This document shows positions 24,910 through 44,798 of a stretch of DNA of 64,000 nucleotides, one piece after another; the first letter of the stretch is position 1, and every line of letters starts with the position of its first letter. The translations under genes were made by a program, and so were the position numbers. The notes under the pieces were generated by a model. It worked only from the letters and a program-made list of their open reading frames with translations, was not told the DNA's origin and searched no databases. The DNA comes from a virus. Its lineage: Duplodnaviria; Caudoviricetes. Where the stretch lies: the IMG/VR virus record IMGVR_UViG_3300032218_003260. One strand, given 5' to 3'.

Positions 24910-25093
24910 AATCTCGTCCTCCTTGAAGAGAAATAAAACAACCGCCGTCTCGTGGCGGTACACGCTAATGGTCTCTCGCCATTAGACGGCCCCACCTATC
25001 ACCGGGCAGGGGTACGGCGAGGAAGTGCTATAGCTTCATGCGTAAGGCCAGTGCAATACACACTGCCGCGGCAAGAGATATAGGTCCTCAATA

Positions 25094-25122
25094 GATATGC
25101 CGTGTTTTTGGCAGATATTTAG
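25094..25122 (-). promoter_or_regulatory. phage promoter motif, copy 5
   Basis: CTAAAT atctgccaaaaacacgg CATATC. Confidence 0.7.
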
Positions 25123-25138
25123 CTAGGTTCTGATAGCT

Positions 25139-25177
25139 AAAAAAAAGCCGGCAGGGAAGCGCATCCCTACCGGCTTT
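25139..25177 (-). terminator. intrinsic terminator
   Basis: AAGCCGG..AGGGA/TCCCT..CCGGCTT stem plus U8. Confidence 0.8.
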
Positions 25178-25233
25178 GCGAAGTTAACGAGATCCGCGCT
25201 CGTGCCGAAGCGACCAATCGGTCGCCAAGAAAG

Positions 25234-25584
25234 CGTTAGCACAAGAAACGCTCGTGAGGACAGGTATCACTACCTACCTACGCCCTGCAGCCGTTTGTTA
25301 GGTCACGAACAGTCTCGCGTTGTACGGACGCAAAACTATGTTATTTAAAACTAGTCCGGCAGGTCTTTCACCTGCACCACCCGCTCCCCTAGCCATAATG
25401 TAGTGTAGTCGAGTGGAGTCACTTGGAATAGCCAACGAGGCCCGGGCGGGGCATGCCCGCTATTCCGCCATCTACCCTAACGGTTCCTGCAAAACATTTC
25501 ACGAAAGCTGCTCGCCCAGCCCTCTGCATGCACCTAGAGATAGGTTCATACACATGCTTCTCACGAGCGTTTCTTGTGCCAACG
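25234..25584 (-). ncRNA. candidate novel structured RNA of about 350 nt closed by a 25-bp stem
   Basis: Inverted repeat 25234-25258/25560-25584. Its single mismatch is a G-U pair on the minus strand. Many internal stems, no credible ORF, terminator downstream. Confidence 0.65.
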
Positions 25585-25608
25585 TATGGATTCTAGCGGC
25601 CGTGTTGG

Positions 25609-25896
25609 CTACGTCAACGTGTCAATGTAGTGCTGCGTCACGCACACATAACGCGTAACAATTTCTTCGGCCTCACTTCCGGCGCAGCGCTGGTCTAACT
25701 TTTGGACCAACGCACTCATTGCCTTGCGGATATTTAACAGCGCGCGGCGAAGTTGTTTCACTTCGATCTCCGCGTCTGTTTTATACCTCGTCCCGCTCTT
25801 CGTGTTCACCTGCGGTTTCAACGCTGTCTTCTCCTTGTGTACCACTTCCGTCCACCATTGGTTGTTCCAGTTCACTGCCGTCCTCGTCGCTGGCAT
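25609..25896 (-). CDS. hypothetical protein
   Basis: 95-aa ORF; overlaps the upstream ORF. Confidence 0.5.
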   Translation of the reverse strand: MPATRTAVNWNNQWWTEVVHKEKTALKPQVNTKSGTRYKTDAEIEVKQLRRALLNIRKAMSALVQKLDQRCAGSEAEEIVTRYVCVTQHYIDTLT

Positions 25897-26080
25897 CTTG
25901 ACTCACTACTATTAGTAGCGCTTCCTTGAGGGTGTCAATCAGGGTGTTTGCGCAACCATCCACGACTTTACGCAGATGCTCCATCTTGTCAATTGTGTTG
26001 CGCATTTCATCTCTGGTTTTTACCAACGTTTCGGCGAGCTTGAGCAACGCCTTCGCGCCGGCTAATGACAGATCTTCCAC
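25781..26080 (-). CDS. hypothetical coiled-coil protein with acidic tail
   Basis: AGGAG RBS, GTG start. Confidence 0.55.
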   Translation of the reverse strand: MEDLSLAGAKALLKLAETLVKTRDEMRNTIDKMEHLRKVVDGCANTLIDTLKEALLIVVSQDASDEDGSELEQPMVDGSGTQGEDSVETAGEHEERDEV

Positions 26081-27337: not shown

Positions 27338-27952
27338 TTAATCCCACAGGGCTTGGTAGTACTTACCGAACAGAGTCGTTCCACGGCGGATACGCTCCTC
27401 GTGTGCTTTCAATCCATCGAAATCGCACTTCACCCGCTTCATGTGCTCGGTGATGTTATCTACATCCGCCAACTCGTCCCGACCCTGCCAGAACTGATCG
27501 TCATGATCCGGGTCGTTCAACTGCTCGAACGCCCAGATCATCTCACCTATGATCCACTCCCAACGCTTTTCATGGTTCTGGTCAGGGGCGCTGCAATTCT
27601 TCTCTTCTTCAGTCAGCGCCGGCGCAGCGCTTGACCGAAGCTCTTCCGGTACATCCTCGTCATCAGTAAAGGGATACCCGTGCTGGGTCGCCTTTAGCTG
27701 CTTGAGCAAGGGAAGGATGATCGGCGCCAAGGTGCTATCGACGCTCCACGTGTCGTAGTAGTGCAGCTTGACGACAACCTTCTGCTTGCGGAACCGACCG
27801 TGAAACCACTCGCAGAACTCGCCAAACCGCGTGTTGTTTAACCACTCGCCGATCTTGTAGCAGCGGTCTTCAGAGACGCCAACCCACTGCAACAGGTCAG
27901 CAATCTGATACGGCCCCCACCACTTGGGAGACTTACCGATGTAAACCTTCAT
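27338..27952 (-). CDS. conserved-looking phage hypothetical protein
   Basis: MKVYIGK...DTWSVDSTLAPIILPLLKQLK...W..II..MIWAF...LFGKYYQALWD. Confidence 0.7.
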   Translation of the reverse strand: MKVYIGKSPKWWGPYQIADLLQWVGVSEDRCYKIGEWLNNTRFGEFCEWFHGRFRKQKVVVKLHYYDTWSVDSTLAPIILPLLKQLKATQHGYPFTDDEDVPEELRSSAAPALTEEEKNCSAPDQNHEKRWEWIIGEMIWAFEQLNDPDHDDQFWQGRDELADVDNITEHMKRVKCDFDGLKAHEERIRRGTTLFGKYYQALWD

Positions 27953-28499: not shown

Positions 28500-28780
28500 A
28501 AAAAAAAAGAAAAACCGGGCGGGTCGATTTACGCCCCCAACCCTATAACCCAAGACGAGCTGCAGCTCTTCTTGGAACCCCTCCACGTCGGCAGCACGCC
28601 ACGAGATTCCCGCAGCGGTATCCGATGGTAAGGAGTACCCGGTTAGACAACGGTGCGCTCAGGTATGCTAGCTGGCGCTGGATATAGGACTTTGGGCTCG
28701 GGCATACCAATCCACCCTAGTTTCCCGGGACCTGCAATCGGCTGTTACCGACGCAGCATTATCCCTTCATCCCCGTTGTT
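28500..28780 (-). ncRNA. candidate structured RNA of about 260 nt immediately downstream of the tmRNA
   Basis: No ORF. Stems GGTATGC/GCATACC, CCAAGA..GAGC/GCTC..TCTTGG, CTGC..TCGG/CCGA..GCAG, GGTA.TCC/GGA.TACC; ends in a long U-tract. Confidence 0.5.
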
Positions 28781-28782
28781 TA

Positions 28783-29126
28783 TGGAGGCGGCGGGAATCG
28801 AACCCGCGTCCAGAGATAGCTCCAGAAAGAACGTCTACGTGTGTAGGCAGTTGTTGTTTACACTCCTGCCAAAGTTAGCCGATTATCGGCGTCAGGTGGG
28901 CTACCACCATCTTGCCCTTTCTTGCTGGGCCAGATCAGCCGATTATCGGCGTCAACCTGATTGGGCAATAAGGCTCAGGTCGCCTCACCCGCTGGCCTAA
29001 AACTAGGCAGCGAGGGCCGGTGCAAAAGCGCCAGCTAGAAACGTAATCGGCTTTTAACGTGGCCAACCGATCAACCACGACACGCAGTCCTAACCTTCCT
29101 TATCCTGTCGATACCAGTACGCCCCC
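28783..29126 (-). ncRNA. ssrA: tmRNA (one-piece, 344 nt)
   Basis: 5' GGGGGCGUACUGGUAUCGAC. 3' T-arm GCGGGUUCGAUUCCCGC plus CGCCUCCA, giving a G3-U acceptor pair. Tag ORF 29032-29003 encodes GAFAPALAA*. Confidence 0.95.
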
Positions 29127-29377: not shown

Positions 29378-29783
29378 TGGCTGGTTGAGAAGGCAACCAT
29401 TTACCCAAGCCCAACACCTAGCGAATGCGTTGGCACCATCGCGAAAGTCTCGACTCAGGGATGTGGTGCTAACGGGCATACTGGGTTTGCGGGGCTTGCA
29501 CGGTAACGAGTGATGTTACCCAAATAAGTGCTTACCTAGCCGCATAACAGTATTGCTACTACCCTCCCACAACATTAAGGAGCATAACTTCCCCCCGCAT
29601 TTCGCAGCGCTGTACACACGCTGCCGAGACAATAACCCGGGCGGGAGTCGAACCCGCAAGCCTTTCGGCACTGGAACCTAAATCCAGCGCGTCTGCCAGT
29701 TCCGCCACCGAGTTGAAAGATGTGGCTGGTTGATAGGGCAACCATTTAACCAAGCCCAACACCTAGCGAATGCGTTGGCACCA
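29378..29783. repeat. 61-bp near-identical direct repeat at 29378-29438 and 29723-29783
   Basis: TGGCTGGTTGA..GGCAACCATTTA.CCAAGCCCAACACCTAGCGAATGCGTTGGCACCA; differences fall mainly in a hairpin loop. Confidence 0.85.
29633..29714 (-). tRNA. tRNA-Leu(UAG)
   Basis: Cloverleaf with long variable arm; anticodon arm CTGGA-TTTAGGT-TCCAG; no encoded CCA. Confidence 0.92.
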
Positions 29784-29796
29784 CAATTTGTTTGTA

Positions 29797-29973
29797 CTAG
29801 ACGAGCTGCGGCCGAAGCTGTTTTTCAACTTCGGCTCTCAGATTTTCGACTGCCTCCAGACACTTCTGGCGGTTCTCGGGAGTTACGCTCTCGGCGTCCG
29901 CGATCGCTCGACGCGTCCAAGTCGTGCAATCTAAAATCGCCAACACTTGCGCCGGCGTCAAATGAAAAACCAT
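29797..29973 (-). CDS. hypothetical protein (58 aa)
   Basis: Not in the ORF track. AAAGGA RBS; MVFHLTPAQVLAILDC... Confidence 0.55.
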   Translation of the reverse strand: MVFHLTPAQVLAILDCTTWTRRAIADAESVTPENRQKCLEAVENLRAEVEKQLRPQLV

Positions 29974-29996
29974 TTGGTTCCTTTCTGTTAAAAAAG

Positions 29997-30233
29997 CTAT
30001 GACCCCATGAGCGTTGCGACTTGATCCAGCGTCGCGTTCTTCAAATCAAACGGCGCAGACCAATTGCCGGCGATTTCGATCGGCGTTTCGCTCTTGAGGA
30101 TAATGACGCGCACGAAATCATCCCGGCCATGACAATCGGACAACGCCGTCTTTGCAGCGTCCATGTCGTCGCTCTCGACGATAGCGACGCCAAAACCGGC
30201 ATTGCCCGGAACAAAACCCAACGCTGCAATCAT
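29997..30233 (-). CDS. hypothetical protein
   Basis: AAGGAGG RBS. Confidence 0.6.
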   Translation of the reverse strand: MIAALGFVPGNAGFGVAIVESDDMDAAKTALSDCHGRDDFVRVIILKSETPIEIAGNWSAPFDLKNATLDQVATLMGS

Positions 30234-30273
30234 GTTTTCCTCCTTCGCGTGGTGTTAAAAACAATCGCACCAT

Positions 30274-30346
30274 TGACCCCACGGGGATTCGAACCCCGGT
30301 AAACGGAACGAAAATCCGTTGTCCTAGGCCACTAGACGATGGGGCC
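30274..30346 (-). tRNA. tRNA-Glu(UUC)
   Basis: Cloverleaf; ACGGA-TTTTCGT-TCCGT. Confidence 0.92.
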
Positions 30347-30355
30347 AGTGTCGTC

Positions 30356-30541
30356 TCAGTCTACCTTTTCGACGTTTAACGCGATAAGAAAACCGCACAT
30401 TTGCGCGAACGTGATCAGCTGCTTCTCTTTGAGTTTGAAGAAATCTGCAAAGTGAGCAAACAGATCGCAGGGCGACAAGTCTGTGGGGTTCTGCGTTTCG
30501 CGCAACTTAGATATCAATTCGGCTGCTCGTTCCAGTGTCAT
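30356..30541 (-). CDS. hypothetical protein (61 aa)
   Basis: AAGGAG RBS, ATG 30541. Confidence 0.55.
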   Translation of the reverse strand: MTLERAAELISKLRETQNPTDLSPCDLFAHFADFFKLKEKQLITFAQMCGFLIALNVEKVD

Positions 30542-30577
30542 CTCGCTGCTCCTTCGTGTAAAGATAACAAAACCCAA

Positions 30578-30648
30578 TGGGCCGCCAAGGAATCGAACCT
30601 TGCATCGCGAGTTAATAAGACTCGCTTGCCTACCAGTTTCCGCGGCCC
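30578..30648 (-). tRNA. atypical tRNA-Ile(UAU), possibly a pseudo-tRNA
   Basis: Perfect acceptor stem GGGCCGC/GCGGCCC and T-arm; anticodon loop CUUAUUA; short non-pairing D-arm; U at position 37. Confidence 0.6.
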
Positions 30649-30711
30649 GCGTGGGTGGGGCGCCAGAGGCTTGGGCTACCTCCAGCGCCCCACCGTCAGC
30701 GAGTCTACGCT

Positions 30712-31074
30712 TCAGCGGTAGCGTTTGCACGCATACCACCGGCCATCCCTGCCACGCGCGACCCCTTGGTCTACGACCGCTCTGCCGCTGTTGCTGTAGC
30801 AGCAGTTGCCCAGCGCCTGTTCAGGCGTCGAGCCCGTGCCGACGCCTTCGTAGCCTGAGTTCCCGCCGTGATGTCCCATGCGGCCATTGCTGGCCTGAAG
30901 CTCGGCTACGCCCTGCGCCGAACCGGTGTGCCCGGCATAAGACGTAGCGTACGAGTAGGACTTGACGGGAGCCGGAACCTGAGACGGCGTGTAGTGGCGC
31001 CTATGTCGCGGGGCAGCATGCGCAACGCTGACCATCGAAAGAACGACTGCTACACACATGAGAAAACGAAACAT
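30712..31074 (-). CDS. small secreted protein, CAP-like (GHHGG...EGVG...CC)
   Basis: Signal peptide from ATG 31074; MGHHGGNSGYEGVGTGSTPEQALGNCC...WYACKRY. Confidence 0.65.
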   Translation of the reverse strand: MFRFLMCVAVVLSMVSVAHAAPRHRRHYTPSQVPAPVKSYSYATSYAGHTGSAQGVAELQASNGRMGHHGGNSGYEGVGTGSTPEQALGNCCYSNSGRAVVDQGVARGRDGRWYACKRYR

Positions 31075-31162
31075 AACGATCCTCCGTGATCCTGTCGCGG
31101 GTGTGCGCGACGTCAAAAAAAGAACCCCACACCGGGTTACACAAACAGACGGTTTCCCGTCT

Positions 31163-31537
31163 TTACGCGGCAGCGAGCTTACGGCGTTTGGCCGCAGCGC
31201 GGCGCAGCTTGACCTCCGGCAAACCCCGCGGACGGCACAATGCGTACTGTACCGCGGCAGCCAGCAGCGCGTTCGAGTTTCGCTGAGAGAACACGTATCC
31301 ACCGTTCTTGTCGTTTGCCAGAAACGGATTACCCTTCCACTTATCAGGGCTCTTGGGATACTTCTTGACACGCTCGTCGAGCCACACTTCGGCCGCATGC
31401 TGGCGAACTTTGTAGAACGTGTTCATCGCCATGGCCCGCAGACCGAGCGTGCGACGATACACATTAACCTGCTCAAAAATCTCCCGCATGAACGACCGAC
31501 AACCGCAGCCCTTGGGGGCAACAAACTGGATCTTCAT
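31163..31537 (-). CDS. hypothetical protein
   Basis: AAGGAG RBS; 124 aa. Confidence 0.6.
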   Translation of the reverse strand: MKIQFVAPKGCGCRSFMREIFEQVNVYRRTLGLRAMAMNTFYKVRQHAAEVWLDERVKKYPKSPDKWKGNPFLANDKNGGYVFSQRNSNALLAAAVQYALCRPRGLPEVKLRRAAAKRRKLAAA

Positions 31538-31663
31538 CAGAATCTCCTTCTATCATCCCTGAACTTACAGCTGTTACGCGCAGCTGTTTCCCATAGAAAT
31601 CATCGCCGCGTAAAGACGATGATTGTTTTGATATCAACGGGATTGAAGAGTAACCCGGATAAA

Positions 31664-31737
31664 TAGGCGCAAAGGGACTCGAACCCCTAACCCCCTGCAT
31701 GTAAAGCAGGTGCTCTGACCAATTGAGCTATGCGCCT
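31664..31737 (-). tRNA. tRNA-Val(UAC)
   Basis: Cloverleaf; CCTGC-TTTACAT-GCAGG. Confidence 0.93.
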
Positions 31738-31743
31738 GCGAGA

Positions 31744-32100
31744 CTACGCCTCGCGCTCTCGCTCGCGGCGTTGACGCCGACGAGCCCACGGAGACCGGTT
31801 CCAGTACCAGCCCCGCCAGCGATTGCAATACGCACGCCAGCGCCGACGCAACTTGTGATACCACTTGTTGCGGCCGATACCGGTGAGGTACTGCTGCGTC
31901 CAGAATTCCATCGACTCGTCTGACGTACCATCCACGTAGCTTTCGCCGCAGTCGAAGCATCGGTTCGCCGGCACACGATACATAGGAACTTTGTGCATTG
32001 TTCCATCAATGCGCATCGTCACGATGTCGTTGAACTCGACCGCTTCGATGCGACCACCGCAGTGAATGCACTTCAACGACTTGTAAACCGGATTACCCAT
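31744..32100 (-). CDS. YgiT/MqsA-type zinc-finger protein
   Basis: CIHCGG...VPANRCFDCGESY; GGAGG RBS at ATG 32100. Confidence 0.7.
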   Translation of the reverse strand: MGNPVYKSLKCIHCGGRIEAVEFNDIVTMRIDGTMHKVPMYRVPANRCFDCGESYVDGTSDESMEFWTQQYLTGIGRNKWYHKLRRRWRAYCNRWRGWYWNRSPWARRRQRREREREA

Positions 32101-32112
32101 ACAGCCCTCCAA

Positions 32113-32198
32113 TGGCCAAGGCGGGACTCGAACCCGCACGGGAAATTACTCCCAGCGGATTTTAAGTCCGCTGCGTCTGCCGATTTCGCCACTTAGCC
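32113..32198 (-). tRNA. tRNA-Leu(UAA)
   Basis: Cloverleaf with long variable arm; GCGGA-CTTAAAA-TCCGC. Confidence 0.94.
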
Positions 32199-32207
32199 AG
32201 CCGCCCG

Positions 32208-32504
32208 CTAGACCAGCGCAGGCTCTTGCGGAGCCGGATACTGCTCGGGATGTGCGATGTGCCGAAATCTATCTTTACCAGTACGGCTGTGCGTGCCGAA
32301 CTTGTCTCGGCTGTGCATCGCATCGCGAACGTATTCAAACGCATGTTCCAGAGTCAGAAACTGCCCGTACGTCATCGACTGCCCGGCGCCGATTTTGCCG
32401 GCGAGATCCTGCGTTATCGCAAGCATCTTTTCCAACTCGATACCGATACGCTCGTTGTAGTAATCGGCCGTAGCTTCGTTGTCATCTCGTTCTTGTGTCA
32501 CCAT
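32208..32504 (-). CDS. hypothetical protein
   Basis: About 98 aa; start uncertain (32504 or 32528). Confidence 0.5.
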   Translation of the reverse strand: MVTQERDDNEATADYYNERIGIELEKMLAITQDLAGKIGAGQSMTYGQFLTLEHAFEYVRDAMHSRDKFGTHSRTGKDRFRHIAHPEQYPAPQEPALV

Positions 32505-32715
32505 TCCAGACGTACCTCTTGTCGCCAATCTGGCACCACCACCGCTGCCCGTCGTTCCAGTAGACGGGAGTCACAGACGGAGATGGCGGTTGCAGCGTTG
32601 TCGGCGCTGGGTGCGCCTTCTGATACTCTTCATAGCTCTGCCACGCGATTCCCGCAAGCATCAGCAACGCCGTCACCAAACCAATCAGATTTCCCTTGAT
32701 TTCGATACCACTCAT
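32482..32715 (-). CDS. small membrane protein
   Basis: AAGGAGG RBS; single TM segment. Confidence 0.6.
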   Translation of the reverse strand: MSGIEIKGNLIGLVTALLMLAGIAWQSYEEYQKAHPAPTTLQPPSPSVTPVYWNDGQRWWCQIGDKRYVWNGDTRTR

Positions 32716-32764
32716 TTCAAAACCTCCTTGTTTGGAAATGACCTTTGAACAACCAATCGAACAA

Positions 32765-32837
32765 TGGGCCCTGTGGGATTCGAACCCACGACCAAAGGAT
32801 TAAAAGTCCCTTGCTCTACCAACTGAGCTAAAGGCCC
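32765..32837 (-). tRNA. tRNA-Lys(UUU)
   Basis: Cloverleaf; AGGGA-CTTTTAA-TCCTT. Confidence 0.95.
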
Positions 32838-32843
32838 ACGCGC

Positions 32844-44669: not shown

Positions 44670-44798
44670 GTCACAACCTAAAAAAGACCCGCCGAGTGAG
44701 CATCGTCGAGAGGCCCGGCGGGTGTGCTTCGCAGTGTTTACCATTACGACGGCTGAACGTCGCTGTCAGGAGCGCAGTCTTACGCAGTTCCGATTTGT

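Follow-up and report, generated by a model that had tools for sequence, protein, structure and literature searches.

A candidate new family of structured non-coding RNA, closed by a 25-bp stem, in large freshwater phages

Large, intricately folded orphan RNAs of bacteria and phages are rare, and earlier ones (RNase P, transfer-messenger RNA (tmRNA), OLE, GOLLD/ROOL) led to new biology. GOLLD and ROOL are large ornate non-coding RNAs (ncRNAs), often borne by phages or prophages near tRNA genes. Long perfect helices are substrates of bacterial RNase III, as in T7 early RNA, rRNA precursors and the intervening sequences (IVS) of 23S rRNA. The latter, reportedly described by Burgin and co-workers in 1990, are said to sit in helices 25 and 45 of bacterial 23S rRNA and to be excised by RNase III; to our knowledge, their bodies have no established function. 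Here we analyse a locus at positions 25,234 to 25,584 of a 64,000-nucleotide stretch of phage DNA (Caudoviricetes; IMG/VR record IMGVR_UViG_3300032218_003260), which is called the window below. From sequence comparison, the locus is rated as encoding a new RNA family and fold, referred to as the lake-phage RNA. It is closest in architecture and population pattern to the RNase III-excised 23S IVS and in kind to GOLLD and ROOL, and is a member of neither.

The unit measures 351 nt in total and consists of two arms of 25 nt each with 301 nt between them. The arms form 24 of 25 Watson-Crick pairs; the remaining position is an A/C mismatch when read on the plus strand but a G-U pair on the minus strand. 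By our own arithmetic, such a repeat (a 25-mer with at most one mismatch and a spacing of at most 1 kb) is expected by chance about 4e-6 times per 64 kb. A sequence-only reading of the window had already claimed this repeat, its 301-nt interior and its minus-strand G-U exception, and all were confirmed at the exact coordinates. It had further seen no credible open reading frame (ORF) inside, which also holds: the homologues differ by indels of 1, 2, 3 and 4 nt located in loops, and the reading frame is therefore not conserved. The locus is intergenic, flanked by two small phage ORFs, and does not lie inside an rRNA gene. The body begins with the bases AAGCAUG and its last base is C.

25560..25584, minus strand: 5' arm of the closing stem P1, 25 bp; 25 of 25 pairs kept in 11 sequences, with compensatory changes in 10 pairs
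25259..25559, minus strand: RNA body of 301 nt with two nested multi-helix junctions, from the RNAalifold consensus and pair counts in 11 sequences
25234..25258, minus strand: 3' arm of P1, from the inverted-repeat search and pair counts

With GOLLD and ROOL the lake-phage RNA shares its character as a stand-alone, large, multi-junction, accessory phage ncRNA, and it lies a few kb from a tRNA/tmRNA cluster. It differs in matching neither RF01998/ROOL nor other Rfam models, in its size (351 nt against about 580-800 nt, thus about half) and in its 25-bp closing stem. Like the 23S IVS, it is extra RNA in the tip of a helix with a long perfect closing stem, which in other strains is a plain hairpin; unlike them, it lies outside rRNA, has its own promoter and has a strongly conserved and covarying body, and its cutting by RNase III is only predicted. 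T4 species 1 and 2 (bands C and D) and phi29 pRNA are abundant structured non-tRNA RNAs of phages, 120-174 nt in length. In phi29 pRNA, which belongs to small podoviruses that have a terminal-protein packaging motor, a helix between the 5' and 3' ends forms a separate functional domain. The lake-phage RNA resembles these in being a phage-encoded structured non-tRNA RNA and, in the case of pRNA, in its paired ends, but has no sequence or structural similarity to them.

Homologues were gathered by exact-word scans (15-19-mers) of viral, metagenome and genome collections (IMG/VR, JGI metagenomes and GTDB genomes), by look-ups of neighbouring proteins, and from contigs encoding a neighbouring 204-aa protein. 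There are 11 distinct RNA homologues, 81-99% identical, all from one clade of 194-205-kb freshwater phage contigs or their fragments. The RNAalifold consensus on their alignments has 119 pairs in 15 helices, and 99.0% of the cells are standard pairs. Double-sided changes affect 28 pairs, versus 3-6 after a shift of the 3' partners by 1-3 columns, and 0 of 500 column shuffles reached the observed values. Compensation is densest in P1, H3, H6 and H9; the outer 10 bp of P1 are sequence-invariant, the terminal pair excepted. Predicted folding energies are -158.5 kcal/mol for the minus strand (z -7.3 versus dinucleotide shuffles) and -125.9 kcal/mol for the plus strand (z -5.2). Several invariant G-U pairs are A/C mismatches on the other strand, and the RNA strand is therefore the minus strand. 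About 15 helices are maintained by compensatory evolution, and covariation, which the sequence-only reading had proposed to test, is strong on the minus strand. Within P1, the architecture comprises the hairpins H2 and H3, the long-range helices P4 and P5 enclosing a second junction (H6, H7, H8 and the branched P9/H9), and the hairpin H10, all placed by the consensus fold:

25526-25557, minus strand: H2, with a 6-nt bulge
25503-25524, minus strand: H3
25487-25497 with 25280-25290, minus strand: P4, TGCAG/CTGCA
25476-25481 with 25297-25302, minus strand: P5, GUUAGG/CCUAAC
25425-25466, minus strand: H6, GGAATAGC/GCTATTCC
25377-25416, minus strand: H7, CCACTCG/CGGGTGG
25359-25375, minus strand: H8, GCAGGT-GAAAG-ACCTGC
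25306-25358, minus strand: P9/H9
25259-25278, minus strand: H10, with a GUGA loop

The stems listed for H6, H7 and H8, together with GCATG/CATGC (part of H2), had been picked out beforehand from the letters of the window and recur in the consensus fold. A further proposed stem, TGCAG..CCGTT/AACGG-CTGCA, survives in part: its TGCAG/CTGCA portion is P4, and its CCGTT/AACGG portion competes with P5. As both of the latter are invariant, covariation cannot pick between them.

Each of five near-complete genomes, like the window, has a single copy of the RNA, located every time between the same small genes; one contig of the clade carries direct terminal repeats and has a completeness rating of 100%. 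Evolution of the RNA is slower than that of the proteins around it: nucleotide identity of the RNAs does not fall below 81% in genomes whose flanking proteins are down to 35-70% amino-acid identity. About 13 freshwater DNA runs contain only 0.35 of the words sampled from a 1001-nt query, which equals the share of the 351-nt RNA. A blastn search of the locus against 50,697 deposited phage records gave no matches, and tblastn of the helicase gave only distant relatives at 33% identity or less. A covariance model of the RNA without the outer 20 bp of P1 (R1) did not find it on distant phage contigs whose 204-aa protein is 50-59% identical, where neither stem nor body is nearby; nor did it match any of 94 genomes from the order of the metagenome-assembled genome that contains one of the phage contigs, and thus no cellular homologue was found there. 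The word-scan matches L018, L019, L023 and L036-L046 are due to chance and were rejected by R1 or by BLAST. A literature search found no description of this RNA. The 204-aa protein itself (27338-27952, minus strand; phrog_11543) has more than 2000 homologues in varied large phage contigs of up to 350 kb and is a useful marker of relatives.

The RNA is a single-copy accessory cassette, and some close relatives lack the body and have the stem hairpin. R1 gives no match in L058-L061 (204-aa neighbour 74% identical) or in L090 (a 157-kb contig), and the same locus, behind an ORF like that for the upstream 95-aa protein (p95), has the stem only, as a plain 15-19-bp hairpin with a short loop. The pattern is that of an insertion at a helix tip, with stem-only alleles in L058-L061 and L090 versus 11 alleles that carry the body. 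The stem-only alleles keep the small tail hairpin(s) and the terminator, and have no promoter of their own. Stem pairs that are G-U and G-C in RNA-carrying alleles are both A-U in L058, and these compensatory changes indicate that the bare hairpin itself is under selection. L058 and L090 do not have the same loop: the former seems to retain the 3' strand of H10 and the latter the first bases of H2. To judge from these remnants, the two may be independent internal deletions of the body; alternatively, the body may once have been inserted into a pre-existing hairpin. Because some relatives keep the stem alone, the body looks like cargo in a hairpin loop; under both scenarios, P1 is a module with a role of its own and the 301-nt body its accessory load. 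Further stem-only candidates (L068-L089, L091-L094 and L095-L098) are chance matches, and the scans added only L090.

The unit has signals for its own transcription:

25590..25617, minus strand: sigma-70-like promoter, TTGACG-16-nt spacer-TAGAAT, matching the consensus at 10 of 12 positions; extends over the final codons of the 95-aa ORF upstream
25209..25226, minus strand: first hairpin of the 3' tail, GGCGACC-GAUU-GGUCGCU; conserved, and shared by L058 and L090, where it follows the empty hairpin
25186..25206, minus strand: second hairpin of the 3' tail, weak; varies between subgroups, with partial compensation
25136..25177, minus strand: intrinsic terminator, a 14-bp G+C-rich stem followed by 8 U; compensatory stem changes; about 90 nt past P1

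The promoter, in the form TTGACG-16 nt-TAGAAT/TACAAT, is found in 9 of the 11 homologues (the window included), with conserved hexamers and a variable spacer. Its -10 box ends 5-7 nt ahead of the first base of P1, which would place the start of transcription at P1. The sigma-70 boxes are not recognisable at the RNA of L020. L055, whose 204-aa neighbour is 65% identical to that of the window, keeps P1 and the body (326 bits to R1); here a phage-type bipartite promoter (AGCTAAATATC ... CATATCTA) replaces the sigma-70 type, the 3' tail is unrelated and the first tail hairpin is absent. The two further hairpins and the strong terminator that the sequence-only reading had placed after the repeat are thus real features of the window, as two small hairpins and then the 14-bp stem with its U-run. 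Conservation is bounded exactly by P1, and L055 demonstrates that the promoter type and the 3' tail are exchangeable; the functional unit therefore consists of P1 and the body.

No family of Rfam 15 accounts for the RNA. The whole window was searched at gathering threshold, and the region with two divergent homologues (L055 and L012) at E<=10; no family was found at the former and nothing reproducible at the latter, where the output is inconsistent noise such as miRNA models on the terminator. This Rfam check had been suggested along with the statement that consensus features of RNase P, signal recognition particle (SRP) RNA, tmRNA and group I/II introns are absent, and the statement stands in all three divergent homologues. 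Models of RNase P RNA, tmRNA, SRP RNA and 6S RNA, as well as those of GOLLD, ROOL, OLE, HEARO and raiA, were not matched by the three sequences.

Traces of the RNA occur in RNA libraries. RNA-library contigs were aligned to the locus from four runs, and other libraries were judged by word share alone. Contigs of 199, 223 and 222 nt from three independent freshwater studies are at least 99% identical and lie wholly within the body (25290-25546), reaching neither the P1 arms nor the flanks, a gap that carries no weight as evidence. In a fourth study, an 840-nt contig from a relative links the body to the upstream gene. In 18 RNA libraries, which come from about 12 studies and include very small ones, 17-50% of the sampled words of the body are present; where a library was judged by word share alone, that share is not by itself evidence of expression. 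We take these contigs as a hint of expression only.

The finding of a discrete large phage ncRNA of unknown family, which the sequence-only reading had suggested, is supported by the covariation on the minus strand, by its own promoter and terminator and by the lack of an Rfam family for three divergent homologues. On balance, we favour the explanation that the locus is a stand-alone gene for a new structured, trans-acting ncRNA, with P1 serving as a processing and stability element that is probably cut by RNase III. In most members, transcription would begin from the RNA's own sigma-70-like promoter within 1-2 nt of P1 and give a primary transcript of about 445 nt, ending at the intrinsic terminator; read-through from the upstream 95-aa gene probably contributes too. 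P1, whose perfect helix exceeds two turns and is invariant in its outer half, would act in processing and in stability, most likely as a substrate of the host's RNase III. Excision by this enzyme, which the sequence-only reading had raised as a possibility, gains in plausibility from the relatives in which the stem persists alone as a hairpin. The cut would release a compact RNA, about 330-350 nt long, from its variable 3' tail and from the upstream mRNA, and would also set the 3' end of the latter; cleaved or not, the paired 5' end would protect the RNA from 5'-end-dependent decay. The freed RNA may then act in trans during infection by binding a host or phage partner, with the invariant bulge and junctions (the 6-nt bulge of H2 and the junctions around P4 and P5) as the presumed contacts. 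Host takeover or counter-defence would be the likeliest setting for a small accessory cassette, and the cassette-like, dispensable nature of the RNA fits such a role. A bolder version, which we hold only tentatively, sees in the 301-nt body a new autonomous class of functional RNA (a ribozyme, an RNA-only assembly or a decoy against RNA-sensing defence) that is hairpin cargo released by host processing; if so, the RNA would be abundant in lake metatranscriptomes worldwide.

Several observations weigh against a processed, trans-acting RNA. The RNA-library evidence consists of contigs only, from which neither transcript ends nor strand nor level can be read, and the look-up gives an advantage to the conserved part of the RNA. 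P5, the apical stem of H2, H8 and H10 are invariant or have one-sided changes only, among homologues that all fall within 81-99% identity; these helices are therefore compatible with the fold and not proven. A covariation screen of the unpaired columns for pseudoknots in the 11 close sequences was swamped by phylogenetic correlation. RNase III, TROVE/Ro60 and RtcB were not found in five genomes of the clade at E<=0.01, nor was a reverse transcriptase (RT) found in five, and there is no obvious phage-encoded partner. Finally, a role in cis of the whole element is conceivable, because the stem-only alleles sit in the 3' untranslated region (UTR) of the upstream gene.

This last point leads to the rival explanation that the locus is a cis-acting 3'-UTR or inter-cistronic element of the 95-aa gene, whose hairpin stabilises or processes the mRNA and whose body is an elaborated stabiliser. 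The stem-only alleles are promoterless, stand directly behind the p95-like ORF and keep their pairing by compensatory changes, and a single RNA-library contig runs from the upstream gene into the RNA. However, a body of 301 nt whose 14 helices are conserved and whose junctions are invariant goes far beyond the needs of a stabiliser, is better conserved than the gene it would serve, and has a recognisable promoter right at P1 in 10 of the 11 RNA-carrying alleles; we judge the cis-acting reading to be quite unlikely. The RNA could also act alone, as a large ribozyme or a self-assembling RNA-only particle like GOLLD/ROOL, with P1 merely a structural clamp. Its size, the two nested multi-helix junctions, the GNRA-type GUGA loop of H10, the GAAAG loop of H8 and the invariant self-complementary GCCCGGGC in the tip of H6 are typical of RNAs whose tertiary or quaternary structure is elaborate. 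Phage-borne GOLLD and ROOL are reported to form multimers (10.1101/2024.12.08.627333). The palindrome GCCCGGGC is, however, predicted to lie half within a local hairpin, and the RNA bears no likeness to any Rfam ribozyme or ornate-RNA model; action by the RNA alone is therefore regarded as unlikely.

The remaining explanations treat the body as an insertion or the unit as a DNA element. Presence/absence polymorphism exactly at the stem and a size like that of a small group I intron would suit a self-splicing intron or another mobile insertion at the RNA level in the hairpin loop. Yet neither RF00028 nor RF00029 was matched, even at E<=10, and the sole intron-type match (12.3 bits, E 4.8, to a group II D1-D4 model) concerns one sequence, is not reproduced in the homologues and is meaningless. 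The body has neither a terminal G nor GUGYG...AY ends, the supposed exons are non-coding, there is one copy per genome, and L058 and L090 look like two different internal deletions retaining bits of the body, all of which makes an intron very improbable. A unit of 351 bp that is bounded by 25-bp terminal inverted repeats and occurs in only some relatives has the outline of a miniature inverted-repeat transposable element (MITE), and an origin or cruciform might be considered too. A MITE is rejected on the single copy per 194-205-kb genome and the fixed synteny. Moreover, the flanks show no target-site duplication, the internal helices show covariation and contain G-U pairs that would be A/C mismatches if read on the opposite strand, and the absent alleles keep both "repeats", unlike a transposon excision or an empty site; a DNA-level element of any of these kinds is extremely improbable. 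The sequence-only reading had also considered a retron-like ncRNA whose RT lies outside the window. As in retron msr-msd RNAs, with their a1/a2 repeats, terminal inverted repeats pair the ends of a structured RNA (here the covarying 25 bp of P1), a feature that alone is not diagnostic. The lake-phage RNA is much larger and has no match to a retron family of Rfam, the ORFs next to it hold no RT domain, and RVT_1 (PF00078) had no matches in five relatives that are 95-100% complete, the control genomes being matched. With no RT in five near-complete relatives, the retron proposal was rejected, and an msr-msd RNA served by an RT encoded elsewhere is hardly credible.

The genes around the RNA are on the minus strand, as are the tmRNA gene (28780-29126; 121.8 bits) and five tRNA genes (Leu-UAG, Glu, Val, Leu-UAA and Lys; 29633-32838), which lie 3-7 kb upstream of the RNA. 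The neighbouring small proteins have no Pfam or PHROG function. Upstream, the 95-aa ORF (25609-25896, minus strand) and a 99-aa ORF (25781-26080, minus strand), which are in different frames, share 116 nt, and relatives conserve both. Between RNA-carrying and stem-only phages, the C-terminal half of the 95-aa protein is different, and in RNA carriers the RNA promoter lies within it. Directly past the RNA terminator there is a phage-type bipartite promoter, AGCTAAATATC-N14-CATATCTA (25092-25124, minus strand); the same motif occurs at L055:5300-5335, where it drives the RNA, and in the distant relative L047. The spot between the RNA terminator and the next promoter is a hot spot of cassette exchange: L024 has an insertion of about 500 nt there (L024:2151-2660), and a 139-aa ORF occupies the same spot in L058 and probably in L020. 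The downstream 76-aa gene has a conserved, structured 5' leader of about 165 nt (24912-25135, minus strand), whose four hairpins show covariation across 8 relatives. One of the four is a terminator-like stem (24941-24959), and its U-run ends just ahead of the ribosome-binding site; an upstream GCCGUCU could pair with AGACGGC of this stem as an anti-terminator; the leader, for which Rfam gave no match, is a candidate attenuator or riboswitch. Further downstream is the gene for a 406-aa Ntn-hydrolase of the acid ceramidase/NAAA/AAT type (PF03417, PF15508; 22394-23614, minus strand), which is only 54-55% identical among phages whose RNAs are 82-99% identical. A match to the abiF RNA motif lies at 44687-44722 (minus strand; 42.5 bits versus a gathering score of 37). 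Among the protein domains sought, Sigma70_r2 was not found in five related genomes (E<=0.01), nor Terminase_6N in the one genome searched.

The novelty of the lake-phage RNA lies in its family and fold, and its function may prove to be a new solution to a known task. Its boundaries are clean, the stem-only alleles are natural "knock-outs", its compact size is suited to structure determination, and it occurs in many lake metagenomes and metatranscriptomes. Together, these features make the role of orphan phage RNAs directly testable, and the cargo-in-hairpin arrangement suggests a general route by which phages may deliver processed RNAs.
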